From: Acidobacteriota bacterium
Lineage (GTDB): Bacteria > Acidobacteriota > Vicinamibacteria > Marinacidobacterales > SMYC01
Assembly: GCA_029263435.1 (NCBI GenBank)
Contig: JAJCXL010000502.1
Coordinates: 1 to 26,510, forward strand
Direction of reading: 5' to 3'
DNA: 26,510 nucleotides
The notes beneath the pieces are model-generated. The model searched no databases, was not told where the DNA came from, and saw only the letters and a list, made by a program, of their open reading frames with translations. Below are positions 3,230 through 16,527 of the stretch, one piece after another. The translations under genes and the position numbers were made by a program. Position 1 is the first letter of the stretch; each line of letters begins with the position of its first letter.

Positions 3230-4003
3230 CTAGTCTGGTGAGACGAGTGCGTCCGCGAGAGCGTTAATCGCGACCAAAGACGGGGCACCGGTATCGACGG
3301 GAGCCATGCGTTTTTGATCTCCTCTTCTCAGCTCATCGTCGTAGGGGATCTCAGCCAAGATATCGAGTCCGTGTGCGCCCGCGTAGTCGGCAATTGCTTT
3401 CCGGTCGACCGCATCTCTTACCTTGTTCGCCACCACCACGACCCGCTCGACGCCCAACTCCTTGCCGAGCGCCACGGTGCGCCGCGCGGTCTCGAGCGCG
3501 CGATAGTACGGCTCCATCATCACGACCAGCGTATCCACGTGTCGCGACGTGCCACGACTCAAATGCTCGAGCCCTGCTTCCATGTCCACGACCGCGACGA
3601 CACCCTTTTCTTGAAGCATTCCACCCACGAGTTGCCGCACCGCGGCATGAGCGCGGCACATTCATCCGGAGCCGGCGTGGTCGACTTGTCCCATCAAGAG
3701 TAAACGGACCCGGTCGGGGCTCTCGGTCCCGTACTGCACGACGATGTCGCGAGCAGGGATACGCAAGTCGAGCTTTCTCTTCCCCTCGGCATCCGTCGTC
3801 TCTTCCAGGATCGTGCGCGGCATGGGTCTCAGTGCGGCCTGCGCATCTTCAGACAAGCCTAGAGTGGAGGCGAGGTTCGGATTGGAGTCCGCGTCGATCG
3901 CCCACACTTCATGGCCTCGCTGTGCGAAGAGACGGGCGAGGGTGCCCGCCATCGTCGTTTTTCCCGTGCCGCCCTTTCCGGCGATCGCTACCTTCGGATG
4001 CAT
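3230..4003 (-). CDS. cooC: CooC/AcsF-like nickel-insertion ATPase with in-frame UGA (probable Sec114), 257 aa
   Basis: Deviant Walker A GKGGTGKTT, then IDADSNPNL, GSG-[UGA]-MCRAH and VDMEAGLEHLSRG. The two track ORFs (3662-4072 and 3230-3661) are in the same frame and separated only by TGA 3664-3662. SD AAGGAG precedes ATG 4003. The joined length is typical of CooC. Confidence 0.88.
3623..3652 (-). promoter_or_regulatory. Candidate bacterial SECIS hairpin
   Basis: Starts 10 nt after the UGA. Lower stem GCUCA/UGGGU, upper stem UGCCGC/GCGGCA, apical loop GGU beginning 21 nt after the UGA. Confidence 0.6.
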
Positions 4004-4019
4004 GAAACTCCTTTGACAC

Positions 4020-4406
4020 TCAGTGTGCGAGGTGCTGACAATCGGCCGGATCGCCGGTCTCACTGCAATCACAATTCGGGTCGCCGCACTCCCCGTGTCC
4101 CGGCTTGGTCATGTCCGAGAACTCGTCCGCGAACCGTCGACCACCTTCCTTATTGCCGATGATGGTGAGGCGAAATCGCGGCTCGGCGGGAGCGCCATGG
4201 ACAGGCTGGGCGAGCACGCGCTCGACGAAGCCGAGCTCTACCATGCGCTCGAGCACCGGCCGGATGTCTTGCTCTTTCATCGTCAGCCACCGAACGAGCT
4301 CTGGGGAGGCGACGTCGTCGGCGAGGCCTTCGCCTCGAAGCCAGAAAAGGATCTGCAGGATCTCGTCGACGGCCGCGACGGGTTGGGCTTCGGGGTCAGA
4401 GGACAT
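4020..4406 (-). CDS. Hydrogenase-associated winged-helix protein with C-terminal Cys/His-rich tail, 128 aa
   Basis: SD GAGGAG before ATG 4406. wHTH-like core (EILQILFWLRGEGL...LERMVELGFV...RFRLT) and tail GHGECGDPNCDCSETGDPADCQHLAH. Confidence 0.75.
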   Translation of the reverse strand: MSSDPEAQPVAAVDEILQILFWLRGEGLADDVASPELVRWLTMKEQDIRPVLERMVELGFVERVLAQPVHGAPAEPRFRLTIIGNKEGGRRFADEFSDMTKPGHGECGDPNCDCSETGDPADCQHLAH

Positions 4407-4917
4407 GAGTCTCCTCTGTCGTCGCCAGGTAATCGACAACGAGGCGCTCGGCCTCACGAACGGCGGGCTCGAGACTCGCCTCCATCGCGGCCGTGAGCTG
4501 GGTCGTTACGTCGTCGCAAGATCCGACCTGCGCGCCTACGATCCAAACAACCTCGGGCAAGACGTCCATCGTCGCCGCGAGGTGAAACACCCCTTCAGGC
4601 TTGGCTTCGTGAAGGTCTACCGGGGTCGTGTGATCGCTTCGGTAGTGGGCGAGATCGGGCTCGAGGACAAAGAGTCGTCCGGCTTCGCAACCTCGCTCCA
4701 ATGCGTCGAGCACGAGCAACGCGTCGTATCCGTCCATGAGCTCGTGCACGAGGCCGATGCCTGCGATCCCACTTTCCCAAAAATGTACTCGTGGCTCCGA
4801 GCCGAGCCGACCCGCTCGCAGGCGTTCGAGGGAGCGAATGCCGAAACCGTCGTCGCCCCGAAGCACGTTTCCGACACCGGCCACGAGAATGCGCGGCGCC
4901 GGTGGGACTCTAGGCAT
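4396..4917 (-). CDS. Hydrogenase maturation endopeptidase (HybD/HupD/HycI family), 173 aa
   Basis: GVGNVLRGDDGFG, LLVLDAL and VDLHE give the full acidic/Asp/His metal-ligand set. ATG 4917 overlaps the upstream stop. Confidence 0.92.
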   Translation of the reverse strand: MPRVPPAPRILVAGVGNVLRGDDGFGIRSLERLRAGRLGSEPRVHFWESGIAGIGLVHELMDGYDALLVLDALERGCEAGRLFVLEPDLAHYRSDHTTPVDLHEAKPEGVFHLAATMDVLPEVVWIVGAQVGSCDDVTTQLTAAMEASLEPAVREAERLVVDYLATTEETHVL

Positions 4918-5407
4918 TGCTCTGGGCGAGCTTGCCGGTGGCTTCTCCAGGTTCTTCGGGCTGAGCGAGCCCAAAGAATTCATAGGTGGCGCGGGGCGCC
5001 AGAACGAGAGCCGCGAGGCTGACCGACAGGATCACGTGCTGCAGAGACATATGAGCCGTGGCGAACAGGCCGCCCAAGGGGTGAGTCATGATGGCGCGGG
5101 CGAAGGTGGGAACACATTCGAGACCGGTCACCAGCCATCCGGCCGCGAGAATGCCGGTGGGCAAGCTCAAGAGGAGAGGCAGGCGGTGGGCAAGCGCGGG
5201 CTTGAGCGCGAACACGACCCCGGCCAATGCGAGCACCGAAGAGCTGGGAAATAGAATTCCGTACAGCCCGACCATGGTCTGGGGCTGGGCGATCATCTTA
5301 TAGGGGATGTAGCCCAACAGACTGAGCCCCGCAAGGAACATCAGCATCCGGTAAATCTTCCACCGTCGACGTTTCTTGCCTTCGCAGCTCTCACCGTCGC
5401 ATTTCAT
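4910..5407 (-). CDS. Uncharacterised integral membrane protein (about 4 TM), 165 aa
   Basis: Four hydrophobic segments after a basic KKRRRWK stretch. ATGA overlap with the upstream gene and 8-nt overlap with the downstream gene. Confidence 0.75.
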   Translation of the reverse strand: MKCDGESCEGKKRRRWKIYRMLMFLAGLSLLGYIPYKMIAQPQTMVGLYGILFPSSSVLALAGVVFALKPALAHRLPLLLSLPTGILAAGWLVTGLECVPTFARAIMTHPLGGLFATAHMSLQHVILSVSLAALVLAPRATYEFFGLAQPEEPGEATGKLAQSNA

Positions 5408-6087
5408 GGCGTGACTCCTCCTGGGGTGCTCGTAACGTTCGTGGCAACTCTGATTCTATCCCCATCGAGGCTCACTTGAAAAGCCTCGAGCCGGGTGTCG
5501 GGGGCTCCGGCTTTGATCCCGGTTTGGACGTCATAGCGGCATCCGTGCCAGGGACAATGAATCTCACCGTCGACGAGCGTACCCAAGTGAAGCGGCAGAA
5601 TACTTCCGGGGCACGTGTTGCGATAAGCGTAGACCGCATCGTCGGTGGCGGCGATGAGCACCGGCGATTGCTCGATCTGAATCGCTCGAAGCACTCCGGG
5701 CGGGAGATCCTCTCGCGCGAAGGCGACGTTCCACGCGGGCTTTCGCTCCACGCCGCCAATCGCATCGAGAGGTATGAATCCGGACGAGTAAGGTGAGGCG
5801 ACCGTGGAGGTACTCTCGACCGGGGTGAGCGGCTCGCTCGGTATGAGGTCGTAGAGGATGAAAAGCATTCGGACGGCGGGGTCCGAGACCATCCGCTCGA
5901 TAAGTCCTTTGCCGCCCAGCTCGCTGAGCACTTCGAACAGGCCCCACACGCAGCTTCGGTGGAGGTGGTCGATATTCTCCACGAGCTCCAACGCCTTGCT
6001 CTTGGCGCTGGATTCCGGCAGGGCCTCGAGCTCTGTGACGAGCTCCGCGACCCGCCGCGCATGATGTTCGAGGTCGTGGGAAGCCAT
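5404..6087 (-). CDS. Hydrogenase-associated Fe-S protein: helical N-terminal domain plus C-terminal Rieske-like domain
   Basis: C-terminus AYRNTCPGSILPLHLG...IHCPWHGCRYDVQTG is Rieske ferredoxin-like. The N-terminus resembles the leader domain of NifU-like hydrogenase accessory proteins. Confidence 0.78.
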   Translation of the reverse strand: MASHDLEHHARRVAELVTELEALPESSAKSKALELVENIDHLHRSCVWGLFEVLSELGGKGLIERMVSDPAVRMLFILYDLIPSEPLTPVESTSTVASPYSSGFIPLDAIGGVERKPAWNVAFAREDLPPGVLRAIQIEQSPVLIAATDDAVYAYRNTCPGSILPLHLGTLVDGEIHCPWHGCRYDVQTGIKAGAPDTRLEAFQVSLDGDRIRVATNVTSTPGGVTP

Positions 6088-6090
6088 CGC

Positions 6091-6603
6091 TCAGTCCATC
6101 TGCTCGGGGAGGACGGTTGCTTGCGCGAGCTCGCGCACGACGCGACAGACCTCAGGGAGCCGCGCCGCGACCTCGTCACTGGCGGTGAGACCCGCGCCGG
6201 TCGTGAGCGCACGGATCTCGACGATGATGACTTCGGGCGGAAGCGCGTCGAACTGCTGAGCGATGATGGGAAAGCTCTCGAGGTCGATGACACCCGTCAC
6301 CGCCTCTGCGACCCGGGTTTGGATCTCTTCAGGAGAGGGAAGCTGGCCGTGCCACGGATACCATCGGTAGCCCTGGTCCGACGACACGTTCTCCGATGCG
6401 CCCAGAAGAACCAACCGCTCGTAAGGAGGCTTTTTCTCTGACAGACGATGAACCGTCGCGATCGGGCCGCCATAGCTCAAGTCGCAAACGTCGACCTCTT
6501 TGGGCAGAGATTCTTGCTGCAGCCTCTCCGCGACCATCAATCCCGCCGACAAGTCGCTTAAGTTGAAATAGCCGACGCTTCCCACGAGCGTTCGCTTCGT
6601 CAC
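6091..6603 (-). CDS. Hydrogenase maturation protease-like protein with degenerate metal ligands
   Basis: LVGSVGYFNLSDLSAG...RLVLLGAS...PEVIIVEI follows the HybD/HycI fold pattern. GTG start with SD AGAAAGG. Immediately follows the large subunit gene. Confidence 0.72.
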   Translation of the reverse strand: MTKRTLVGSVGYFNLSDLSAGLMVAERLQQESLPKEVDVCDLSYGGPIATVHRLSEKKPPYERLVLLGASENVSSDQGYRWYPWHGQLPSPEEIQTRVAEAVTGVIDLESFPIIAQQFDALPPEVIIVEIRALTTGAGLTASDEVAARLPEVCRVVRELAQATVLPEQMD

Positions 6604-6609
6604 GCCTTT

Positions 6610-8496
6610 CTACTCATCGACACCGCACGCGCAGGTATTGATCTCTCGCGACACGACGTGATCGCCGGCGTGAACGTGGGTCGTGCACGGCATGCACGGG
6701 TCGAAGCTTCTCAGCGTTCTCAATACGTCCACCGCTTTGAAGCTCTCCGGCGAGTCGAACTCCTCCAAGATTGGAGTCGCCATGACGGCTTCTTCATAAG
6801 GGCCGAGGTGACCCCAAACGTCTCGGGGCGAGGCGTTGATCGTGGACGGAGTGATGATCTGATAGTTCGCGACGAGGCCGCCATCGAGCTCGAGATGATG
6901 ACTGAGCCACCCACGCCCGGCTCCGGAGAAACCGACGCCCACGCGAGTGCCTCGGGTGGGAATCTCGAACGGCGTAGAGACATCGGTCTTGCCCTGCTTG
7001 AGGTAGTCGAGGCCTTTTAGCCAGTTGTTCATCGCGACGGCGTTGTTGAACAAAATTGCGTAAGCTCTGGCGCGGTTTCGCTCGAACGTGTTCCACACTT
7101 TCGGAATCTTCCACTCCATCTCGACTTCGGGTTTCTGACTCTTGGGGACTCGAAACTTGAGACTCTTTCCCGTCGCTTCCACGAAATCGTTCGTCGGCAT
7201 TTTTTGCGCGGCGGCCGTCGTCCACAGTCGGGTATAAGCTCCGGCTTCGAAAGATTGGCGATCCCATCGGGGCGCACAGGACCAGGAATATTTCTCCTTC
7301 CAGTTCTGTCCGGTGGGCTTGGGTTTGGTCTCCTTGTTCCACGGGTGGTACGGGCTGAGCGGGTTGCCGCTCGGGTCACTTGCAAAACGCTTGCCCTCCC
7401 ACTCGTCGTAGAAGGAGTGCTCGACGAACTCCTCGATCCCGGCATTGATCGCGGTGAGCTTGGTCGTGACGAGCTCCCCGTTCATGATGACGCCCGGGGT
7501 GGACCACCTCTTTTCACCCCATGAGTCGCAGTTCTCGTAGGAGGCGTCATAGGCTTCCGGATCGTCCCAGAGCCCGAGATCCGCCATGTGGATCGGGCGC
7601 TCACCGCACTTCTTATAGAGGGGATTCAGCTCGTAGAAAAACTCCGTGATGTCGTCCCAGATCGCGGCCACTTTCTTCGAGTAGTCGAAAAGCTGCTGGA
7701 GCCTGGTGTAGTACTCGTTGAACGCTTGGAGGCTCACGAGCGTGCTGACCCCACCGGGGACGATCGTCTCCGGATGTGGATACTTGCCGCCGAGCACGAC
7801 ATAGGCCTCGCGGGCGAGGCGGGTCATGGCGAGAGCTTCGACGTATAACTTTCCGGATAGCGGGTTCAGGTCGGTCATGATCTCTGCCATCGTGCGGTAG
7901 CCGTGAAGATCTCGCCCTCTCGCGTCGTAGGTCTTGGCCTTTGCCCAGGCCGACGGGTTGGTTTGCTCTACGACGAGCTGGGAGTAGTCGGGCCCGGCGA
8001 GGAGAAACAAATGGAGCGGATGATCGTAGTTGAACTCCATCGCGAGCATGAGGTTGCGAATGACGATGCCCAGTGGAGGGGGCACCACTCCGAGGGCCAT
8101 CTCGATGGCTTTGACGGCGGCGATCGAATGGACGCCGCCACACACGCCGCAAGCGCGGCTAGTAATGAAGACGGCGTCGCGCGGGTCGCGTCCGTTCATG
8201 ATGATCTCGTAACCGCGAAACAAGGTCGCCATCGAGTTCGCATTGAGCATCTTGCGCTCTTTGAGATCCGCGACCGCGTGGAACGCCAGAGCACCCGCGA
8301 CCCGGGTGACCGGATCGAAGTCCACATCCTTGACGAAACCATTTCGCGCGAGAAGCTCTTTGATCGCTTTGTCCGACAGAGGCTTCGGCCCCACGATATC
8401 GGGCGTGCCGGCCAAGGCGAAGGCTCTCGTCGCTTCTTCCCGAAGGGTCATGCGGCCTTGGGCATCGATGTCGATCGGCAGATTTTTGAAGCACAT
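6610..8496 (-). CDS. hylL: [NiFe]-hydrogenase large subunit (group 1, probably 1l), 628 aa
   Basis: L1 TSRACGVCGGVH and L2 SFDPCMPCTTH, followed by a 21-aa cleavable extension. The group call rests on gene layout and motifs, not on a tree. Confidence 0.95.
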   Translation of the reverse strand: MCFKNLPIDIDAQGRMTLREEATRAFALAGTPDIVGPKPLSDKAIKELLARNGFVKDVDFDPVTRVAGALAFHAVADLKERKMLNANSMATLFRGYEIIMNGRDPRDAVFITSRACGVCGGVHSIAAVKAIEMALGVVPPPLGIVIRNLMLAMEFNYDHPLHLFLLAGPDYSQLVVEQTNPSAWAKAKTYDARGRDLHGYRTMAEIMTDLNPLSGKLYVEALAMTRLAREAYVVLGGKYPHPETIVPGGVSTLVSLQAFNEYYTRLQQLFDYSKKVAAIWDDITEFFYELNPLYKKCGERPIHMADLGLWDDPEAYDASYENCDSWGEKRWSTPGVIMNGELVTTKLTAINAGIEEFVEHSFYDEWEGKRFASDPSGNPLSPYHPWNKETKPKPTGQNWKEKYSWSCAPRWDRQSFEAGAYTRLWTTAAAQKMPTNDFVEATGKSLKFRVPKSQKPEVEMEWKIPKVWNTFERNRARAYAILFNNAVAMNNWLKGLDYLKQGKTDVSTPFEIPTRGTRVGVGFSGAGRGWLSHHLELDGGLVANYQIITPSTINASPRDVWGHLGPYEEAVMATPILEEFDSPESFKAVDVLRTLRSFDPCMPCTTHVHAGDHVVSREINTCACGVDE

Positions 8497-8497
8497 G

Positions 8498-8782
8498 TCA
8501 GTTCGATCCTTTTTGGCCGAGTGCGTCAGCCGTGCGTTCCAGGTTTTTGTCGACGTGCTCGAACTCGCCGCTCAAGGCTGAAAGAGCTCCGGCGATGGTT
8601 GTGATGCGCTCTTTCAGCGGCTTCGCGTTGTCGCGCACGCGGATGAGGCCGGCGGCGAGCTTATCCAGGTGCTGGCTCGCCCGGAGAAGATAAAACGCGA
8701 CGCCGCTGAGATAAGTGGCGAGCACCACGACGATGGCTGCGGTAAGAACGAGCGTCCAGAGAGTGAGGGTTTCAGTCGTCAT
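8498..8782 (-). CDS. Small single-pass membrane protein TM5 (94 aa)
   Basis: MTTETLTLWTLVLTAAIVVVLATYLSGVAFYLL followed by an amphipathic helix. Starts 2 nt after the TM4 stop and stops 1 nt before hylL. Confidence 0.8.
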   Translation of the reverse strand: MTTETLTLWTLVLTAAIVVVLATYLSGVAFYLLRASQHLDKLAAGLIRVRDNAKPLKERITTIAGALSALSGEFEHVDKNLERTADALGQKGSN

Positions 8783-8784
8783 GT

Positions 8785-9078
8785 CTACGAGTCCTTCGCG
8801 GACGTCACCGCGGTCGCGATATCGGCTGTGCGCGCCTTCACACTTTGCGTGGTGGTCAGTAGCTTCGTCGCCGTCGTTATCGTCGCCGATAGAGCCGCCA
8901 CCGCTTCGGTGTTCGACGCGATGCCGGCTCCGGCGGTGAGCGCTTCTTCGAGGTTGCGCTCGATGTTGCGAGCGGCGGTCAACGTACGATGTAGCAAGAC
9001 GATCGCGAGCGGTACTACGACGAAGCTCACCACGCCCAACGTGACGGCCCAAATCCAAAGTGCGGCTTCCGGGATCAT
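8785..9078 (-). CDS. Small single-pass membrane protein TM4 (97 aa)
   Basis: N-terminal TM helix plus Ala/Thr-rich amphipathic helix. ATGA overlap with TM3. Confidence 0.8.
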   Translation of the reverse strand: MIPEAALWIWAVTLGVVSFVVVPLAIVLLHRTLTAARNIERNLEEALTAGAGIASNTEAVAALSATITTATKLLTTTQSVKARTADIATAVTSAKDS

Positions 9079-9365
9079 TTTTCACCTCCGGTGAGGTTGC
9101 CGACGACGGTCTCGAGCTCTTGATCGACTGCGGCGAGCCCGTCGCCCAGCGACGCGAGCCCTGCATTGAGCTTCGTCACTTGCGGTGCGAGGTGCCCGGT
9201 CTCGGTCTCGATGGCGCGCAGCCCGAAGCGGATCTTCGCGAGAAAGCTCGTCGGGGATCCTCCGATCGCGTCGAGCTCTCGATGGATGAGGATGAGGTAG
9301 ACGGCGACCACCAACAGCAGGGCCACGGCTGCCAAACAGCTCAGAAGAGTCAGCAGCGTGATCAT
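9075..9365 (-). CDS. Small single-pass membrane protein TM3 (96 aa)
   Basis: MITLLTLLSCLAAVALLLVVAVYLILI followed by LAKIRFGLRAIETET. ATGA overlap with TM2. Confidence 0.8.
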   Translation of the reverse strand: MITLLTLLSCLAAVALLLVVAVYLILIHRELDAIGGSPTSFLAKIRFGLRAIETETGHLAPQVTKLNAGLASLGDGLAAVDQELETVVGNLTGGEK

Positions 9366-9658
9366 GACGATTGGGTAGCCTTTCTGATGCGCTGAGCGGC
9401 GGAAGCGATGCTCCCCGCCGAGTCTAGCAGCGCCCCGGCCAAGTGATTCGTCCGTTTGAGGTGAGCGATATTGACGGTGTTTCCGGCGATGCGTTTTCCG
9501 CCCGTCCAAATGTCGGACACGCTGGTGAGAATCCGGCGCGCGGTCATCAGAATCATTTGCAGGAGTGCTATCACGACGAGCAGCACGACCGCACCGAGCA
9601 CGAGCGCGACGATCCAACGTTGTTCGGAGACTGGGGAAAGTGTCCATAAAGTGAACAT
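9362..9658 (-). CDS. Small single-pass membrane protein TM2 (98 aa)
   Basis: WIVALVLGAVVLLVVIALLQMIL TM helix plus amphipathic tail. SD GAGGAAGG. TTG 9661 is an alternative start. Confidence 0.8.
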   Translation of the reverse strand: MFTLWTLSPVSEQRWIVALVLGAVVLLVVIALLQMILMTARRILTSVSDIWTGGKRIAGNTVNIAHLKRTNHLAGALLDSAGSIASAAQRIRKATQSS

Positions 9659-9673
9659 CAAAGGTTTCCTTCC

Positions 9674-9949
9674 TCAACCGAGCCGGTCGGCGATCGTGTG
9701 GACTCGCTGATCGACGGATTGCACCGTACGGGCGATACCCTCGGTGATTCGGTTGGCATCGCCAAGGGACCAGATGGGCTGGGTCGCGGACTCGATCTCA
9801 GCCGCCACGCTGAGCGCGGTCGCGGCGAGGCTCGCGATCTTTCGCGCCACCATCAGAATCGTGATGAGGAGCACGGCCACCGCGAGGACGACCACGGCGC
9901 CGAGGATGAACCCCAGCCGCCACTGTGCAAGAACGTCGGTCTCGGTCAT
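9674..9949 (-). CDS. Small single-pass membrane protein TM1 (91 aa)
   Basis: MTETDVLAQWRLGFILGAVVVLAVAVLLITILMV plus amphipathic tail. ATGA overlap with the small-subunit stop. Confidence 0.8.
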   Translation of the reverse strand: MTETDVLAQWRLGFILGAVVVLAVAVLLITILMVARKIASLAATALSVAAEIESATQPIWSLGDANRITEGIARTVQSVDQRVHTIADRLG

Positions 9950-11193
9950 CGGTTGTCTTCTCCGGTCTTGTCGACATGCGAGCCGGGCTTGGAAGTGCCG
10001 AGGAACTGATACTTCTCGTAGACTTCGTGAACGAGTCGTTTCGCGAAACTCGGCTTGTCCACGTTCCCCCAACCACTGGGGACGTGATCGTCCCACCTCG
10101 TCGTTCGGTTCTGAAATTGCTGGGTGAGACGCCGGAGAGTGCGGATGAACGTGCCGGTCACTCGAGACAAGTTGGTCGAGACGAGCGAACCAGGCGGCAT
10201 CTTGTAAAACGGTGCGAATCGGTCTGGGAATCCCGGCATGGTGCAGCCGATACAGATCCCTCCCGTGTTCATGCACCCACCCATGCCGTTGATGGCGCCG
10301 CGCTGGGTGATGTTGCATTGAACGACCGGACCCCAACAGCCCACCTCGACGAGACACTCCTTGTCCCCGTAGCTCTCGGCAAAGAGTCCTTCTTCGTAGA
10401 AGCCGGCGCGGCCGCAGCGCTGGTGTACGGTCTCTTGGAAAAGCCACGCGGGGCGTCCGAGCTCGTCGAACTCAGGCAGCGGGCCCAATCCTTGTAAAAA
10501 CAAGAGGACCGCGGCAACGGTCTCGGTAAAGTTGTCGCCGACGGGGGAGCAGCCCGGGATGTTCACCACCGGAAGCCCCAGATCGCTTCGATAGTTCTGG
10601 CCGAGAAAATCCATGACGCCCATAGCTCCGGTTGGATTGCCGGCCGCCGCTGGGACGCCTCCCCATGTCGCGCAGGTGCCGATCGCTATCGTCGCCGCCG
10701 CGTTAGGTGCGAGGCGCGAAAGCCAGCTCGCGGTCGGGATGGGTTTCGATTGTCCGTTGGGAAGCTTCTCCGCGCCGAGCGCCGACCAGTAGCCTCCGTG
10801 TTTCTCCGCCAATCTCTCATCGGCGACGGAGCCCTCGAAGATGACCACATAAGGAGCGCCAAGCTCGCCTCTTTCGGCCATCCGATAGTTCTCGACGAAG
10901 GCATCTCCCGCCTCCACCGACAGCACTGGATGATGAAGCACCACCCGTGGCACCCCTGGAATCGTTCCCGCCATCAACATTTCCGCCGAGGGACTGGTGG
11001 CTCCGACGACACAGATCGAGCAGCCGTCGCAGCTCATCCCGGCCAGCCAGAATGCATGGACGACGTCGTAGGGCCCGAGGTTTAGCTTCTCCGACTTTGC
11101 CTCTTGCAGCCGGGCTTCTCGAAGGGCAGCAGGCGCCGCCCAGCTGTCGGGATCCATGTTCGACGCAACGTTTCCGTTCGCGATTTCTGCCAT
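9946..11193 (-). CDS. hylS: [NiFe]-hydrogenase small subunit (no Tat signal), 415 aa
   Basis: Proximal SCDGC / GTCA / PGCSP, distal HQRC...ECLVEVGC, medial CN...GGCMNTGGICIGC. SD GAGGAG. Confidence 0.94.
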   Translation of the reverse strand: MAEIANGNVASNMDPDSWAAPAALREARLQEAKSEKLNLGPYDVVHAFWLAGMSCDGCSICVVGATSPSAEMLMAGTIPGVPRVVLHHPVLSVEAGDAFVENYRMAERGELGAPYVVIFEGSVADERLAEKHGGYWSALGAEKLPNGQSKPIPTASWLSRLAPNAAATIAIGTCATWGGVPAAAGNPTGAMGVMDFLGQNYRSDLGLPVVNIPGCSPVGDNFTETVAAVLLFLQGLGPLPEFDELGRPAWLFQETVHQRCGRAGFYEEGLFAESYGDKECLVEVGCWGPVVQCNITQRGAINGMGGCMNTGGICIGCTMPGFPDRFAPFYKMPPGSLVSTNLSRVTGTFIRTLRRLTQQFQNRTTRWDDHVPSGWGNVDKPSFAKRLVHEVYEKYQFLGTSKPGSHVDKTGEDNR

Positions 11194-11218: not shown

Positions 11219-12289
11219 TCAGCAAATCCTGGGGAGCTGTTCCCCCGAGATCATCGTGACGACGCGCTCTCCGCCGACCGCCGAGCGCATCAAGACCATT
11301 GTTGGGTGGTCCGCGACGGCCTCTCCGACGATCGCGGCGTCTGCCCCGAGCGGGTGCTGTCGCATGGCGTCGAGTACGTCTTCCGCGCTTTCGGCGGGCA
11401 CGGCCGCGACGAGCTTTCCTTCATTTGCGACGTAGAGCGGATCCAGACCGAGGATCTCGCAAGCCGCGCGCACTTCGCGCTTCAGCGGGATGGCACTCTC
11501 TTCGAGCACCAAGCCGACTTGAGAGCTTCGTGCCAGCTCATGAAGCACGCTCGACAGCCCGCCTCGGGTCAGATCCCTCATAACGCGAACGGGAGCACCG
11601 GTCGCGAGAACCTTCTCCGTCAGTCCGGACAACGGCGCGCTATCGCTTTCGATGGTGGTCTCGAACTCGAGGCCTTCTCTCACCGATAGAATGGCGATGC
11701 CGTGGTCGCCGAGGGTCCCGGAGACGATGAGCTTGTCTCCGGAACGAACGCTCGCAATGGAGAGGGTCCGGTCCTTGGCCACCAGGCCGACGCCCGAAGT
11801 GTTGATGAATATCTGGTCCCCTTTGCCGCGCTCGACGACTTTGGTGTCACCGGTTACGAGACGCACGTCCGCGTCCCGACACGCTTCGCCCATCGAGCGC
11901 AGCACCCGCTCGAGTGTCTCGATCGGGAGTCCTTCTTCGAGGATGAGCCCGGCGCTCAAGGCGAGAGGGCGCGCCCCGCCCACAGCGAGATCGTTGACCG
12001 TTCCATGCACCGCGAGCTTGCCAATATCTCCGCCCGGAAAAAACAGCGGCTGAACCACGTAAGAATCCGTCGTGAACGCGAGTCGGCTGTCACTTTGCGG
12101 CAGGCTGAGCGTCGCTTGATCTTCCAAAGCCGCCAGGATGTCATTGTCGAAAGTCGGCACGATGATGCGATGGATCAAGTCTTCCATGAGCTGTCCGCCA
12201 GCTCCGTGGCCCATCGTGATCTCGGGATAACGCGACTTGGGAATAGGACAGCTACCCGCGAGCTCCGGACCAGTGAGCGGTTGGCTCAC
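11219..12289 (-). CDS. hypE: Hydrogenase maturation carbamoyl dehydratase HypE, 356 aa
   Basis: [31 protein letters not shown] and C-terminal PRIC. GTG start overlaps the hypD stop (GTGA). Confidence 0.97.
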
Positions 12290-13401
12290 CGTGCGACCTC
12301 CGTCGTCGCGGCTTCGAGGTGCCGTCCATAGGCGTAATAGGCGGCACAGGCGCCTTCGGATGAGACCATCGTCGCGCCGAGTGGCGTTTGCGGCGTGCAC
12401 GCCGTACTGAACGCCGGGCAGTCGAGGGGTTTTTTCACCCCTTGTAGAATCTCGCCGCTGATACAAATCGGAGATTCTCGGGTCTCGACTGTCTCGACGT
12501 CGAAGCGGCTGGCGGCATCGAACGCGCGGTAGCTCTCCGAGAGCCGGTAGCCGCTCGCCGGGATTGTCCCTATTCCCCGCCACTTCCGGTCGCAGACGTC
12601 GAAGACTTCGGCGAGAAGATCGCGCGCGTGCGGATTGCCCTCCCGGCTCACGACTCGCCGGTACGGCGTTCGAACCTTGGCTTCACCGGCTTCGAGCTGC
12701 TCGACCGTACGTAGGATGCCCTCGAGCATGTCGACCGGCTCGAAGCCGGTGATCTCGATAGGCACGCCGTAGCGCTCCGCAAGGGGCTCGTACTCTTCGG
12801 TACCCATCACGGTACAGACGTGGCCCGGCCCGAGAAAACCGTCCACCCGATTCGCGGGCGACTGAAGCAGAAACTCGATGGCGGGGGGCACGAGCACGTG
12901 AGAGGCGAGGATGCTGAAGTTGTCGAGACCGCGGCGACGGGCTTGCTTCACCGCCATCGCGTTGGCCGGGGCGGTGGTCTCGAATCCCACCGCGAAGAAC
13001 ACGATGTCGCGGTAAGGGTGTTTGGCGGCGAGCTCGACCGCGTCTAACGGTGAGTAGACGACGCGAACGTCGGCGCCTCGTGCTTTGAGCTCGAGGAGGT
13101 CACCCTGAGAGCCCGGCACGCGCAGCATGTCACCGAACGAGGTAAAGATGACCTCGGGACGGGACGCGATCGAATGCGCGCGGTCGATGACCTCGAGGGA
13201 CGTCACGCATACCGGGCATCCCGGCCCATGAACCAGCTCGAGCGCCTTCGGGAGCAACCGATCGATCCCGAACTTCACGATCGTGTGTGTCTGTCCGCCG
13301 CAGATCTCCATGAGGGTCCAAGGTCGCGTCATCGCTCGTTCGATGCCCTGGACCAGCTTGCGAGCAGCGACGGGGTCGCGGTATTCGTCCAGATATCTCA
13401 T
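12286..13401 (-). CDS. hypD: Hydrogenase maturation protein HypD
   Basis: [26 protein letters not shown] and the C-terminal Cys cluster with [10 protein letters not shown]. Confidence 0.98.
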
Positions 13402-13655
13402 GAGCCGGGATCCTCGAGCTTCAACTCCGCGATCTCTCCCATGCTGTCGAGCAGCTCGAACACCTCGCGCGCGTACTGTTCGTCGATGCGTGACAGCGCA
13501 AATCCGACGTGCACGAGCACATACTCGCCCGGCTCGACCTCGGGAACGTGGTCGAGGCAGATCTTCTTGACCACTCCATCGAAGCTCACTTTTCCCATGA
13601 GGATGTCGTGCTCACGAAAGGTATCGATGACTTTTCCGGGAACTCCGAGACACAT
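13398..13655 (-). CDS. hypC: Hydrogenase chaperone HypC
   Basis: N-terminal MCLGVPG and YVLVHVGFA. Confidence 0.97.
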
Positions 13656-13658
13656 GAC

Positions 13659-16004
13659 CTAAACGCCTCCTTCAAGAGCTGCGGAGAGCTTCGCGGCAGC
13701 CACCGCGATCTGTCCGAGCGCGAGACCTCCGTCATTCGGAGGGACGTGATGGTGCGTGAGCACTCGAAAGCGTTTCGCTTCCAACGCCCGAAGGGCGAGT
13801 CGTGTCAGCAAAACGTTTTGAAACACACCGCCCGTGAGCGCGACACGATGAATGCTTCGCTCTTCGCGGATCCCGTCGCACATCTCGACGATGCATCGTG
13901 CGAGCGACGCGTGGAAACGTCTCGCTACGCGTTGGGGTGTGGCGCCCCCCGCGAGCTCTTCCACGATGGCCGTGGTAAGCGGTCGCGTATCCACGACCCA
14001 GCCGGACGCTCCGGGCGCGATCTCGAAAGGATAAGGCGCTTCGTCTGCTTCACCTTCGCAAAGCCACTCGAGGGCCATCGCCGCTTGCCCTTCGTAGGCG
14101 ACGACGTGCCGCAGCCCCACGAGAGACGCCACGGCGTCAAACAGCCGCCCGGCGCTTCCGCTCGGCGGAGATTGCACGCCGCGCTCGATCATCGCCCATA
14201 CGATCGCGGCTCGCTCCTTGGGGATGTCCGTGGCGTCACCCGCGTCGAGGCCGGCGTCGTGGAGATACGATAGAGCCATCCGCCAGGGCTCGCGGGCGGC
14301 GGCGTCGCCTCCAGGGAGAGGGACCGGCCGTAGCGACCCGACTCGGGTGAAGGACCGACAGTCGCCGACGAGAAACTCGCCTCCCCAAATCGTTCCATCG
14401 GTGCCCAGGCCCGCTCCGTCGAACGTGACGCCGATCGCCGGCTCGAGCGCCTCGGGCCCGTGGGAGATGGCATTGTCGGCGAGACAGCTGGCGAAATGCG
14501 CGTGGTGATGCTGGACGCCTATTTGGGCGACACCCCGTTCGTTTGCCCGGGTTGTCGCGTAGCGCGTCGAAAAATAGTCTGGATGAAGATCGTGGACCAG
14601 TGCCTCCGGCTCGAAATCGAAAAGGTCTTCATAGAGTGCGATATCCCGCTCGAAAGCCTGGCACGCTCGGAGGTCACTCAGATCGCCGATGTGATGACTC
14701 AGAAAGGCGTTGGGTCCAATGCCGAGAGCGAATGTGTTTTTCAAATGGCCGCCGACCGCGAGTAGCTTTTTCGAGGCCTCGACCGAAAGGCGCAGCGGCT
14801 CGGGAGCGAAACCTCGAGATCGGCGGATAGGCGTCGAGGTCGCCCCCACGACGCGCACTACGGAGTCGTCGCACCGTACCCGAATGGGCCGGTCATGCGT
14901 GAGGACGACGTCAGCGATAGCGCCGAGCCGGTCCACCGCGTCGTCGTCCTCGTAGGCGATGGGCTCGTCGGAGAGATTCCCGCTCGTCATGACGAGAGGT
15001 CGTCCGTCAAGAGCGCGCGAGAGCACGAGATGAAGGGGAGTGTACGGGAGGAGGACGCCAATCGTCGGATTGGAAGGCGCGACGGCTTCCACGACGATGG
15101 ACGGATGCCTTTTTTCGAGCAAGACGATGGGGCGGTGTCTCGAACGAAGCAGCTTCGCCTCGTGACTCGACACGTGCGCCCATCGACGCGCGGCGTCGAC
15201 ATCGGCCGCCATGACCGCGAAGGGTTTCTCGTAGCGCCTCTTCCGCTGCCGTAATCGGGTCACGGCCGCGGACGACGTCGCGTCGCACACGAGGTGAAAG
15301 CCTCCGAGACCTTTCACGGCCGCGATGGCACCGTGGCGAAGGCGCGTGACGAGATCGGTCATCGCATCGCCGGTTGGGCCATCTTCGTTCGCAGTGCCAT
15401 GCAACCGGAGCGTCGGACCACAAGCCGGACAAGCGTTCGGTTGGGCGTGGAATCGACGATGGGTCGGGTCTTTGTACTCTCTCCGGCAATCGCCGCACAT
15501 CGAGAAGCCCGACATCGACGTCCGTTCACGATCGTAGGGGGCACCTTCGATGATCGTCAGGCGGGGTCCGCACTGCGTGCAGTTCAAAAACGGATAGAGG
15601 TAGCGTCGGTCTCGCGGATCGAACAGCTCGCGCTCGCAATCCGAGCAGGTCCCGAGATCCGCGAGAAATCGAGGGCTAGGGCCGGGGCGGGTCGCTTCGG
15701 TCGCACTCGCTCGGATCTCGAACCGCTCGGCACCATCGACCGGCATCGGTTGCCAATGCAACGACTCGATGCGAGAGGTCTCGGGGGCGCTTTCGGGAAG
15801 GGCTTCGATAAACGCTTCCAGGCTTTGGGGCTCCCCCTCGATCTCGATGCGGACCCCGGTTACGTCGTTGACGACGAAGCCGCGGAGCGCGTGGCGCGCG
15901 GCGAGAGAGTGAACGTAAGGTCGAAATCCGACGCCTTGAACGAGCCCCCGCACGGAGATCGCCCGGCGTTCGGCATGTCGATCGTCTACGACGGGCGCAG
16001 TCAT
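13659..16004 (-). CDS. hypF: Carbamoyltransferase HypF
   Basis: Acylphosphatase domain (VQGVGFRP), two CxxC-x18-CxxC zinc fingers, KGLGGFHL, HDLHPDY, QHHHAH and LTGGVFQN. Confidence 0.98.
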   Translation of the reverse strand: MTAPVVDDRHAERRAISVRGLVQGVGFRPYVHSLAARHALRGFVVNDVTGVRIEIEGEPQSLEAFIEALPESAPETSRIESLHWQPMPVDGAERFEIRASATEATRPGPSPRFLADLGTCSDCERELFDPRDRRYLYPFLNCTQCGPRLTIIEGAPYDRERTSMSGFSMCGDCRREYKDPTHRRFHAQPNACPACGPTLRLHGTANEDGPTGDAMTDLVTRLRHGAIAAVKGLGGFHLVCDATSSAAVTRLRQRKRRYEKPFAVMAADVDAARRWAHVSSHEAKLLRSRHRPIVLLEKRHPSIVVEAVAPSNPTIGVLLPYTPLHLVLSRALDGRPLVMTSGNLSDEPIAYEDDDAVDRLGAIADVVLTHDRPIRVRCDDSVVRVVGATSTPIRRSRGFAPEPLRLSVEASKKLLAVGGHLKNTFALGIGPNAFLSHHIGDLSDLRACQAFERDIALYEDLFDFEPEALVHDLHPDYFSTRYATTRANERGVAQIGVQHHHAHFASCLADNAISHGPEALEPAIGVTFDGAGLGTDGTIWGGEFLVGDCRSFTRVGSLRPVPLPGGDAAAREPWRMALSYLHDAGLDAGDATDIPKERAAIVWAMIERGVQSPPSGSAGRLFDAVASLVGLRHVVAYEGQAAMALEWLCEGEADEAPYPFEIAPGASGWVVDTRPLTTAIVEELAGGATPQRVARRFHASLARCIVEMCDGIREERSIHRVALTGGVFQNVLLTRLALRALEAKRFRVLTHHHVPPNDGGLALGQIAVAAAKLSAALEGGV

Positions 16005-16489
16005 TCGCGCTCATGCCTCAAAGCGAATCTGACCACTGATTGGTGACCGGACGGTGGCAGGGCCGGCTGCGCGAATCGCTTCTGACCCTCGCCGATGCCT
16101 TCCGGCGTGAGCGCGTAGCGGGCCGGTATCCGAGTCGTTTGAGCGGCGACTAGGCCGCCGTCGGTCAACGCTTTGAGGTGGCGCTCAACCACTCTCGGAG
16201 AAACGTCGAGGAGCGATGCGAGCTCGGCCGAAGTAACCGTCAATCCCAGGCCCTGGCTCAACAGCCAGTGCATCAAGTGATGGGTCTCCGTCTGAAGGTC
16301 CGGCGGCTTCGCGGGTGAATGGTCCCGCTTCTGGGTCCACGTCACGATGGCGTCGCGGTGGAACCGCCAATCGGTTCCCATCTTGAACGCTGGAATCCGG
16401 CCTTTACGCGCGAGGCGGTAGACCGTGTTGGGATGTACCTTCAAAAAGTTCGCAACCTCGGCGACGGTCAAGACCTCTTGCGGGGACAT
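16001..16489 (-). CDS. Putative transcriptional regulator: excisionase-like (HTH_17/MerR-like) DNA-binding domain plus C-terminal winged helix, 162 aa
   Basis: LTVAEVANFLKVHPNTVYRLARKGRIPAFKMGTDWRF is a typical Xis-like HTH. SD GGAGG before ATG 16489. ATGA overlap with hypF. Confidence 0.85.
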   Translation of the reverse strand: MSPQEVLTVAEVANFLKVHPNTVYRLARKGRIPAFKMGTDWRFHRDAIVTWTQKRDHSPAKPPDLQTETHHLMHWLLSQGLGLTVTSAELASLLDVSPRVVERHLKALTDGGLVAAQTTRIPARYALTPEGIGEGQKRFAQPALPPSGHQSVVRFALRHERE

Positions 16490-16527
16490 TTCCAGCCTCC
16501 AAACCAATTACGTGGTGAACGTGTGTC

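Follow-up and report, generated by a model that had tools for sequence, protein, structure and literature searches.

A candidate nickel-insertion module, comprising a CooC-type ATPase and a Cys/His-tail protein, in group 1l [NiFe]-hydrogenase operons

Background

Nickel insertion by HypA and HypB is treated as standard in the maturation of [NiFe]-hydrogenases. In Thermococcus kodakarensis the part of HypB is played by a MinD-type ATPase (PDB 3VX3; Sasaki et al. 2013, cited in PMC13202556), and the CooCTJ proteins of Rhodospirillum rubrum are reported to be without action on hydrogenase (PMC6006190). A CooC-type ‘Ni insertion ATPase/GTPase’ has been annotated in group 1m hydrogenase clusters of Actinobacteriota, in a paper that is silent on hypA and hypB (Ray et al. 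2022, PMC9561532). Group 1l hydrogenases have been reported to prevail among hydrogenase families in the Antarctic soils from which the group was defined, and the Mackay Glacier metagenome-assembled genomes (MAGs) stem from the same study (Ortiz et al., 10.1101/2020.08.06.239558). Here we analyse a group 1l-type operon on the minus strand of a 26,510-nucleotide stretch of Acidobacteriota DNA (contig JAJCXL010000502.1 of assembly GCA_029263435.1; the whole stretch is hereafter called the window), which belongs to a 4.5-Mb MAG of 587 contigs that is 75.9 % complete. The last two genes of this operon encode a small protein with a Cys/His-rich tail and a CooC-family ATPase whose reading frame is interrupted by a single TGA codon.

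The published group 1l cluster (HylSL, HylTM1-5, HylE, HupD; 10.1101/2020.08.06.239558) resembles the window in having five short genes between the subunit genes, and a Rieske protein and an endopeptidase are present in both. Conserved downstream open reading frames (ORFs) were left unlabelled in the published cluster, whereas here they are the tail-protein gene and a split-looking CooC gene. We propose, with a probability of about 0.62 and by analogy with characterised nickel chaperones, that the last two genes of the group 1l operon constitute a dedicated nickel-insertion module that replaces HypA and HypB. Literature searches combining selenoproteins with CooC, and CooC with group 1l, returned nothing on such a module, the sole relevant paper being that on group 1m (PMC9561532).

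Results and discussion

Distribution of the ATPase and tail-protein genes

An alignment of four large subunits was used as the query of a survey that retrieved 80 loci from species-representative genomes. The large subunit of the window is 62-83 % identical to those of the 80 loci, several of which are Mackay Glacier MAGs, and its gene arrangement together with the large-subunit identity to loci that include the MGR MAGs marks the cluster as of the group 1l type. By their record titles the surveyed genomes belong to eight phyla (Acidobacteriota, Planctomycetota, Verrucomicrobiota, Chloroflexota, Gemmatimonadota, Methylomirabilota, Armatimonadota and Actinobacteriota). Our tallies include four genomes flagged as unpublished (G063, G066, G118 and G119), and the conclusions are independent of them. 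The G066 locus was excluded from the alignment of the selenocysteine insertion sequence (SECIS) described below but contributes to the 43 TGA codons and is counted for SelA and HypA; G063 is included in the Cys-codon, SelA and HypA tallies, and the G118 and G119 loci are included in the lists of tail proteins and large-subunit extensions.

The ATPase and the tail protein are linked near-universally to group 1l loci. A CooC-like gene was found by tblastn in 53 of the 80 loci, those without it lying mostly on short contigs, and anywhere in the genome in 71 of the 80. The tail protein is encoded in about 62 of the 80 loci, its gene often lying directly upstream of cooC. Two further genomes of the window's family (G004 and G011) contain the same operon with the TGA at the same codon, and homologues of the tail protein lead to unrelated contigs, from an Acidimicrobiia MAG and from another soil assembly, with the same gene order.

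A CooC-type ATPase in a hydrogenase operon

The ATPase gene (3233-4003, stop codon 3230-3232) comprises 257 codons including the TGA and, when read through it, encodes a protein of 257 residues that matches Pfam CbiA. A phmmer search of the PDB gave CooC1 of Carboxydothermus hydrogenoformans as the closest solved structure (3kje; E 2.1e-34 over residues 4-223). A deviant Walker A motif, GKGGTGKTT, occupies residues 9-17, the MinD-type switch regions are conserved and the VVDMEAGLEHLSRGT block of the protein aligns to CooC1. In this alignment G-S-G-U-M-C of the ATPase faces G-S-Q-C-Y-C of CooC1, which places the TGA on Cys112 of the Cys112/Cys114 CxC motif that forms the Ni/Zn site. The Walker A and switch regions, the position of the CxC motif and the significant full-length homology to a characterised CooC all assign the protein to this family.

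The known association of the family is with carbon monoxide dehydrogenase/acetyl-CoA synthase (CODH/ACS). The gene lies in a hydrogenase operon, and neither CooS/prismane (PF03063) nor CdhC/AcsB (PF03598) has a match in the genome of the window. The ATPase is a CooC by sequence, yet one that lacks a CODH/ACS client and so departs from the functional definition of the family. The original prediction had allowed that a Ni-CODH/ACS elsewhere in the genome might account for cooC, an explanation that gains no support from this result; among 50 genomes with related loci, the prismane family, which includes both CooS and hybrid-cluster proteins, was matched in only two. We also considered whether the protein might be a MinD-type HypB of the Thermococcus kind (mmHypB). 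This was rejected, as the match to Thermococcus 3vx3 is confined to the P-loop (E 1.8e-4) and there is no HypA in the genome.

Certain loci from Chloroflexota and Gemmatimonadota carry extra tandem CooC/MinD-like paralogues with 30-37 % identity downstream of the hydrogenase (L057, 10944-12567; L102, 11891-13371), one of each pair being without the CxC cysteines.

Probable selenocysteine at the predicted metal site

The in-frame TGA (3662-3664) almost certainly encodes selenocysteine, U114 of the ATPase. Among 60 hydrogenase-linked CooC genes, 59 from the surveyed loci and that of the window, the codon at the first position of the CxC motif is TGA in 43 and TGC or TGT in 17. The reading frame is kept on both sides of the TGA, which aligns to Cys in homologues, and in two unrelated contigs the gene caller had split the ATPase at this codon into fragments of 111 and 139-144 amino acids.

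A SECIS-type hairpin, UGCCGC-GGU-GCGGCA, with a 6-bp stem and a GGU loop, can be read from the sequence downstream of the codon (3633-3647) and is supported by covariation within the family. Its stem begins 15 nt past the UGA, and in the window and its closest relatives the family hairpin is displaced by one base (3647-3633). In 42 aligned TGA contexts, loop positions G31 and U32 are invariant and the stem pairs 27-37, 28-36 and 25-39 covary, with stem pair counts of CG 20 vs UA 12; AU 18 vs GC 15 and CG 2; and GC 28 vs GU 8 and AU 3. Cells with a double change numbered 32 compared with 8.5±4.5 after shuffling, none of 500 shuffles reaching the observed value, and all slid controls were lower. 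Pairing is sometimes preserved by a Gly-to-Ser codon change facing a synonymous change in an Ala codon. On inspection no SECIS hairpin was seen in the Cys-type cooC genes. Folding of the single sequence gave a 9-bp minimum free energy hairpin after the TGA, but with no significant z-score, and since the comparative alignment favours the 6-bp hairpin with the GU loop, the former was set aside. No structure was obtained by RNAalifold from 43 sequences, and pairs were counted explicitly instead.

SelA, SelB and SelD are all above cut-off in the genome of the window. Among 50 genomes, SelA was found in 37 of 38 with a Sec-type and in 5 of 12 with a Cys-type CooC gene. The possibility that the TGA is a true stop and the gene a pseudogene was rejected on the conservation of this one codon across phyla, the frame intact on both sides, the covarying hairpin and the co-occurrence with SelA. 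A table of prokaryotic selenoprotein families in a 2026 review contains no CooC, MinD or ParA-type protein (PMC13188914).

For a second hydrogenase in one of the surveyed genomes (G085:C3:13000-14550), the large-subunit match is full-length and contains two TGA codons; this hydrogenase could be of the [NiFeSe] type, sharing the genome with a Sec-type CooC.

Distribution of hypA and hypB

The original prediction noted hypC, hypD, hypE and hypF in the operon and neither hypA nor hypB, which agrees with our scans, as Pfam HypA and NCBIfam HypB match nothing in the window. Extending the search as it had suggested to the rest of the genome, we found no match to either in the whole 4.5-Mb, 75.9 % complete assembly. 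The only hydrogenase of this genome is represented by the 1l large subunit.

We then compared HypB (TIGR00073) with the large-subunit family across all 80 genomes and HypA (PF01155) across the first 50. Pfam matches to a 1l large-subunit gene are characteristically two and partial, so that additional, different matches mark another hydrogenase type. HypB scored above cut-off in 12 of the 14 genomes in which a non-1l hydrogenase is encoded, compared with 5 of 66 with the 1l type only (Fisher p = 8e-9, a value that overstates the evidence as the genomes are related); without G063, G066, G118 and G119 the figures are 11 of 13 and 5 of 63. HypB is thus missing from 61 of the 66 genomes that have 1l-type hydrogenases only. 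Of the 50 genomes searched for HypA, 12 had it above cut-off and each of these has HypB as well, while G072 alone had HypB without HypA. Where found, hypAB usually adjoin the non-1l hydrogenase: in the closest relative of the window (G061:C28) hypB (5273-5896) and hypA (5917-6249) are followed by a large subunit (7849-9399), and the same holds for G066, G084, G085, G089, G092 and G105. The hypAB genes track the second hydrogenase while the CooC-like gene tracks the 1l locus, and the two do not co-occur freely, an outcome that had been named beforehand as one that would have spoken against replacement.

The same combination was found in a complete genome, that of Haloferax sp. S1W, in which large and small subunits, HycI, a tail-protein homologue, a CooC-like gene and hypCDEF are present and neither HypA nor HypB is above cut-off. 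Its CooC-like gene is of the Cys type and its tail homologue has the same Cys/His motif. As a cultured organism with a complete genome, Haloferax sp. S1W would be a useful experimental model in which the idea is directly testable. Its locus (L115, CP172595.1:2697046-2717819) has one 112-aa ORF between the hydrogenase subunit genes.

These distributions bear on a highly improbable alternative, in which hypA and hypB lie in the unassembled 24 % of the window's genome and the CooC-like gene is an accessory extra or a split pseudogene. The fragmented state of the assembly and the failure to recover tRNA-Sec from it would be compatible with missing genes, as would the presence of hypAB in the closest relative (G011/G061). 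In G061, however, hypAB directly adjoin a second, standard hydrogenase which the genome of the window is without, and the absence of HypB extends to the 61 genomes above and to the complete Haloferax genome, while the conserved TGA, its intact flanking frame, the hairpin and SelA argue against a pseudogene.

The Cys/His-tail protein

The gene upstream of cooC (4023-4406) shares its first 11 nt with the 3′ end of the endopeptidase gene and encodes a protein of 128 amino acids with no Pfam or NCBIfam match, a candidate nickel carrier or adaptor. It starts with MSSDPE, has the cysteine pattern C-x4-C-x-C-x8-C and ends in the motif H-x-E-C-x-D-P-x-C-x-C-x8-C-x-H-x2-H, its C-terminal sequence being as originally described. 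We identified 291 homologues, which are unnamed or carry generic regulator names and belong to no curated family. The H-x-E-C-x-D-P-x-C-x-C…C motif and a helix with the sequence E-G-G-R-R-F-A-D-E-F vary hardly or not at all, and two or more His occur within the last 12 residues in 43 of 62 tails. The family is acidic, with a median isoelectric point (pI) of 4.8 and a net charge of -10. An AlphaFold2 (AF2) model (predicted local distance difference test, pLDDT, 83.6) combines a winged helix with a long helix and a tail of low confidence, and its top Foldseek matches are MarR-family proteins with a MarR/PadR-like fold, at template modelling (TM) scores of 0.45-0.57. In 4 of 62 loci, including that of the closest relative, HycI and the tail protein are encoded in one stop-free open frame, and the database protein P0204 represents the same HycI-tail fusion.

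The fold raises the alternative that the tail protein is a metal-sensing MarR/PadR winged-helix regulator of the operon and neither carrier nor adaptor, which we regard as quite improbable. The model resembles MarR, PadR, AdcR and ZitR with TM scores of about 0.5, family members match the MarR_2 and HTH_27 Pfam families weakly, and the operon's first gene encodes a paralogous domain joined to a helix-turn-helix (HTH). That fusion is lineage-specific, however, and of the features expected of a MarR/PadR regulator only the winged-helix fold was found: conservation within the protein is lowest in the putative recognition helix, in contrast to the invariant EGGRRFADEF helix and Cys motif, and the strongly acidic charge is not one compatible with DNA binding. 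The position beside the protease and cooC genes is fixed, and the in-frame HycI fusions at four loci also argue against a regulator. Taken together with the model, these features fit a metal-binding maturation adaptor better than a DNA-binding regulator.

The tail protein was also considered as a HypA homologue and rejected, as it has no PF01155 match, no MHE motif and a winged-helix fold. The route first envisaged, in which the Sec-containing CooC takes the place of HypB and the tail protein that of HypA, is supported as a whole. The missing hypAB, the homology to CooC and the lack of a CODH/ACS are in its favour, while the tail protein as a HypA analogue, being without homology to HypA, is the weaker half.

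The HTH-fusion gene, at the start of the operon, joins the HTH to a domain that is 31 % identical to the tail-protein winged helix (88 aa, E 4e-6), and a full-length copy was found only in the close relative L032. This fusion may couple regulation of the operon to the tail protein.

Nickel insertion and its alternatives

Several observations weigh against replacement of HypA/HypB by the two proteins. HypB was found in five genomes with 1l hydrogenases only: in G069 hypAB form part of a second hyp set with DUF6084/DUF5947, families that occur in group 1h clusters; in G072, which has no hypA, the hypB match is divided over two reading frames; in G120 it is in two pieces; in G138 a lone hypB adjoins a NicO-type transporter gene; and the context in G115 is uninformative. 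Two genomes with group 3-like enzymes (G125 and G133) are without HypB, which makes the absence of HypB an imperfect marker. Most of the surveyed genomes are incomplete MAGs, that of the window being 76 % complete, and tRNA-Sec was not found in the latter by aragorn or Rfam RF01852, the best matches being tRNA-Ser with only 28 tRNAs assembled. The tail protein has a fold of the DNA-binding type and its four cysteines could form a structural Zn site instead of a Ni site. Escherichia coli hypA and hypB mutants can be rescued by high nickel, so that absence of hypAB is no proof of replacement. Finally, the MinD-family proteins Mrp and NBP35 deliver Fe-S clusters, and another cargo is therefore possible.

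The last two points lead to an unlikely alternative in which the CooC-like ATPase does mature the hydrogenase but acts in Fe-S delivery, in conformational gating or in assembly with the five small proteins, nickel entering spontaneously or by another factor. Pfam ParA/NUBPL and NifH-type P-loop matches of the ATPase are consistent with such a role, as are the five small ORFs, which are peculiar to this cluster type, and the tolerance of E. coli to loss of hypAB at high nickel. The nearest solved relative by far is nevertheless the nickel protein CooC1, with an E-value of 2e-34, the Mrp homologue 3vx3 reaching about 1e-4; the ATPase has the CxC motif of CooC, whereas NBP35 and Mrp have CxxC; and with hypAB missing this alternative leaves the nickel step without an assigned factor.

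In G138 the lone HypB-type GTPase gene and the NicO-type nickel transporter gene (G138:C348; L117, 5869-7731) lie away from the hydrogenases and may be a general nickel-handling pair.

Proposed mechanism

A mechanism for nickel insertion can be outlined from analogy; that either protein binds nickel, the sequence of hand-over, the partners docked to and the benefit of selenium are all inferred. The CooC-type ATPase would dimerise upon ATP binding, as does CooC1 (PMC6006190), and its dimer interface would hold Ni(II) through the U-x-C motifs, by two selenolates and two thiolates. The tail protein would capture or buffer nickel through H-x-E-C…C-x-C…C and its His-rich end, and would dock the system on the endopeptidase and on the large-subunit precursor already loaded with Fe(CN)2CO. 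ATP hydrolysis would then free nickel into the Fe(CN)2CO-loaded site, following the logic of HypAB (PMC13202556), after which the HycI endopeptidase would cut off the large subunit's C-terminal extension.

This extension (codons 6613-6675) follows DPCMPCTTH and ends in N-T-C-A-C-G. The sequence N-T-C-[A/G]-C, nearly always followed by Gly, ends the extension in 79 of 81 loci, and its CxC is a third such site, the ATPase and tail protein having one each. Speculatively, a third site suggests a relay. A selenium-dependent relay in which nickel is passed between U-x-C of the ATPase, C-x-C of the tail protein and CxC of the extension, which is then cut, is a conceivable but doubtful elaboration of nickel insertion by the module.

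Operon layout and other genes

ORF listing combined with Pfam and NCBIfam scans, with the most plausible start codons chosen as gene boundaries, delineated a compact hydrogenase operon running from 16507 to 3230. Adjacent genes overlap by 4-11 nt or are separated by at most 25 nt, as originally observed. The promoter that had been placed at about 16550 was not recovered, a simple sigma-70 consensus scan finding none there, and no intrinsic terminator was found by a scan 3′ of the cooC stop codon.

The operon begins with the gene of the HTH fusion (16001-16507), a Xis/MerR-type HTH protein (PF12728) and putative lineage-specific regulator. It is followed by hypF (13659-16004), hypC (13398-13655), hypD (12286-13401) and hypE (11219-12289), identified by Pfam and belonging to the assembly of the Fe(CN)2CO group. 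The [NiFe]-hydrogenase small subunit (9946-11193; PF01058 and PF14720) and the group 1l-type large subunit (6610-8496; 628 aa; PF00374) are separated by five small ORFs of 91-98 aa (8498-9949), as judged from ORF and start analysis and with a like arrangement in L029 and L030. Between the large subunit and the genes of the tail protein and ATPase lie a degenerate protease-like gene (6091-6603), a HylE-like Rieske [2Fe-2S] protein (5404-6087; PF00355), a predicted membrane protein of 165 aa (4910-5407), situated between the Rieske and protease genes, and the HycI/HyaD-type maturation endopeptidase (4396-4917; PF01750 and TIGR00072).

The product of 6091-6603, directly behind the large subunit, matches TIGR00072 below cut-off (E 1.4e-5) and by eye is missing the GDD/EG motif. 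The same position in L029 and L030 is taken by a gene of 185-186 aa that has no Pfam match. This degenerate HycI-like protein may act as a chaperone instead of a protease. The 165-aa membrane protein has a Cys-rich N-terminus, C-D-G-E-S-C-E-G, but no family match, and is apparently missing in the relative G011.

Implications

New to this analysis are the genome-wide table of HypB and second hydrogenases, the comparison with SelA, the complete genome of Haloferax, the fusions to HycI and the CxC motif of the large-subunit extension. The survey describes a hydrogenase class that occurs in one haloarchaeon and no fewer than eight phyla of bacteria, is mostly without hypAB and has a CooC-type ATPase and tail protein as near-constant companions. 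Were the module to load nickel, CooC-type chaperones would extend beyond CODH/ACS, and heterologous production of the oxygen-tolerant 1l enzymes would need both genes together with Sec decoding or a Cys variant, and not hypAB. A widespread selenoprotein family, missing from the 2026 catalogue (PMC13188914), would be one routinely annotated as two broken genes, and selenium supply may then limit atmospheric H2 oxidation in soils. If the relay also held, selenium would be a hidden need for atmospheric H2 oxidation in many soil phyla, and the route would represent a third, HypAB-independent maturation pathway.

Comparison with known nickel chaperone systems

The step proposed here is the same as that of HypA/HypB: nickel is delivered in an NTP-dependent manner to a large subunit that already carries Fe(CN)2CO, and the endopeptidase cuts afterwards. 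Both systems are encoded with hypCDEF. The module would be a further NTPase-driven nickel metallochaperone system. The components differ, HypB being a G3E GTPase and HypA binding Ni at an N-terminal MHE site and Zn at a 2×CxxC site, and the module of the window is unrelated to either. As is proposed for this operon, a SIMIBI/MinD ATPase stands in place of the GTPase HypB in the mmHypB system of Thermococcus (PMC13202556); its partner, however, is a canonical HypA, and according to its description mmHypB does not itself carry Ni, whereas here there is no HypA and the motif is of the CooC type. The CooC-type gene of group 1m is listed among genes mostly unique to that group (PMC9561532), while here it is a near-constant of the 1l loci.

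The closest likeness is to CooC1 and CooC of C. hydrogenoformans (3KJE) and R. rubrum, with which the ATPase has the fold family, deviant Walker A motif and CxC position in common. As R. rubrum CooC has CooJ, the ATPase has the tail protein, both partners being small with a Cys/His-rich tail (PMC6006190), although the partner here is a winged-helix protein with no relation to CooT or CooJ. The known clients of CooC are Ni-CODH/ACS, whereas here the gene belongs to a [NiFe]-hydrogenase operon, and where CooC1 has Cys as its first metal ligand, most members of this ATPase family have selenocysteine.

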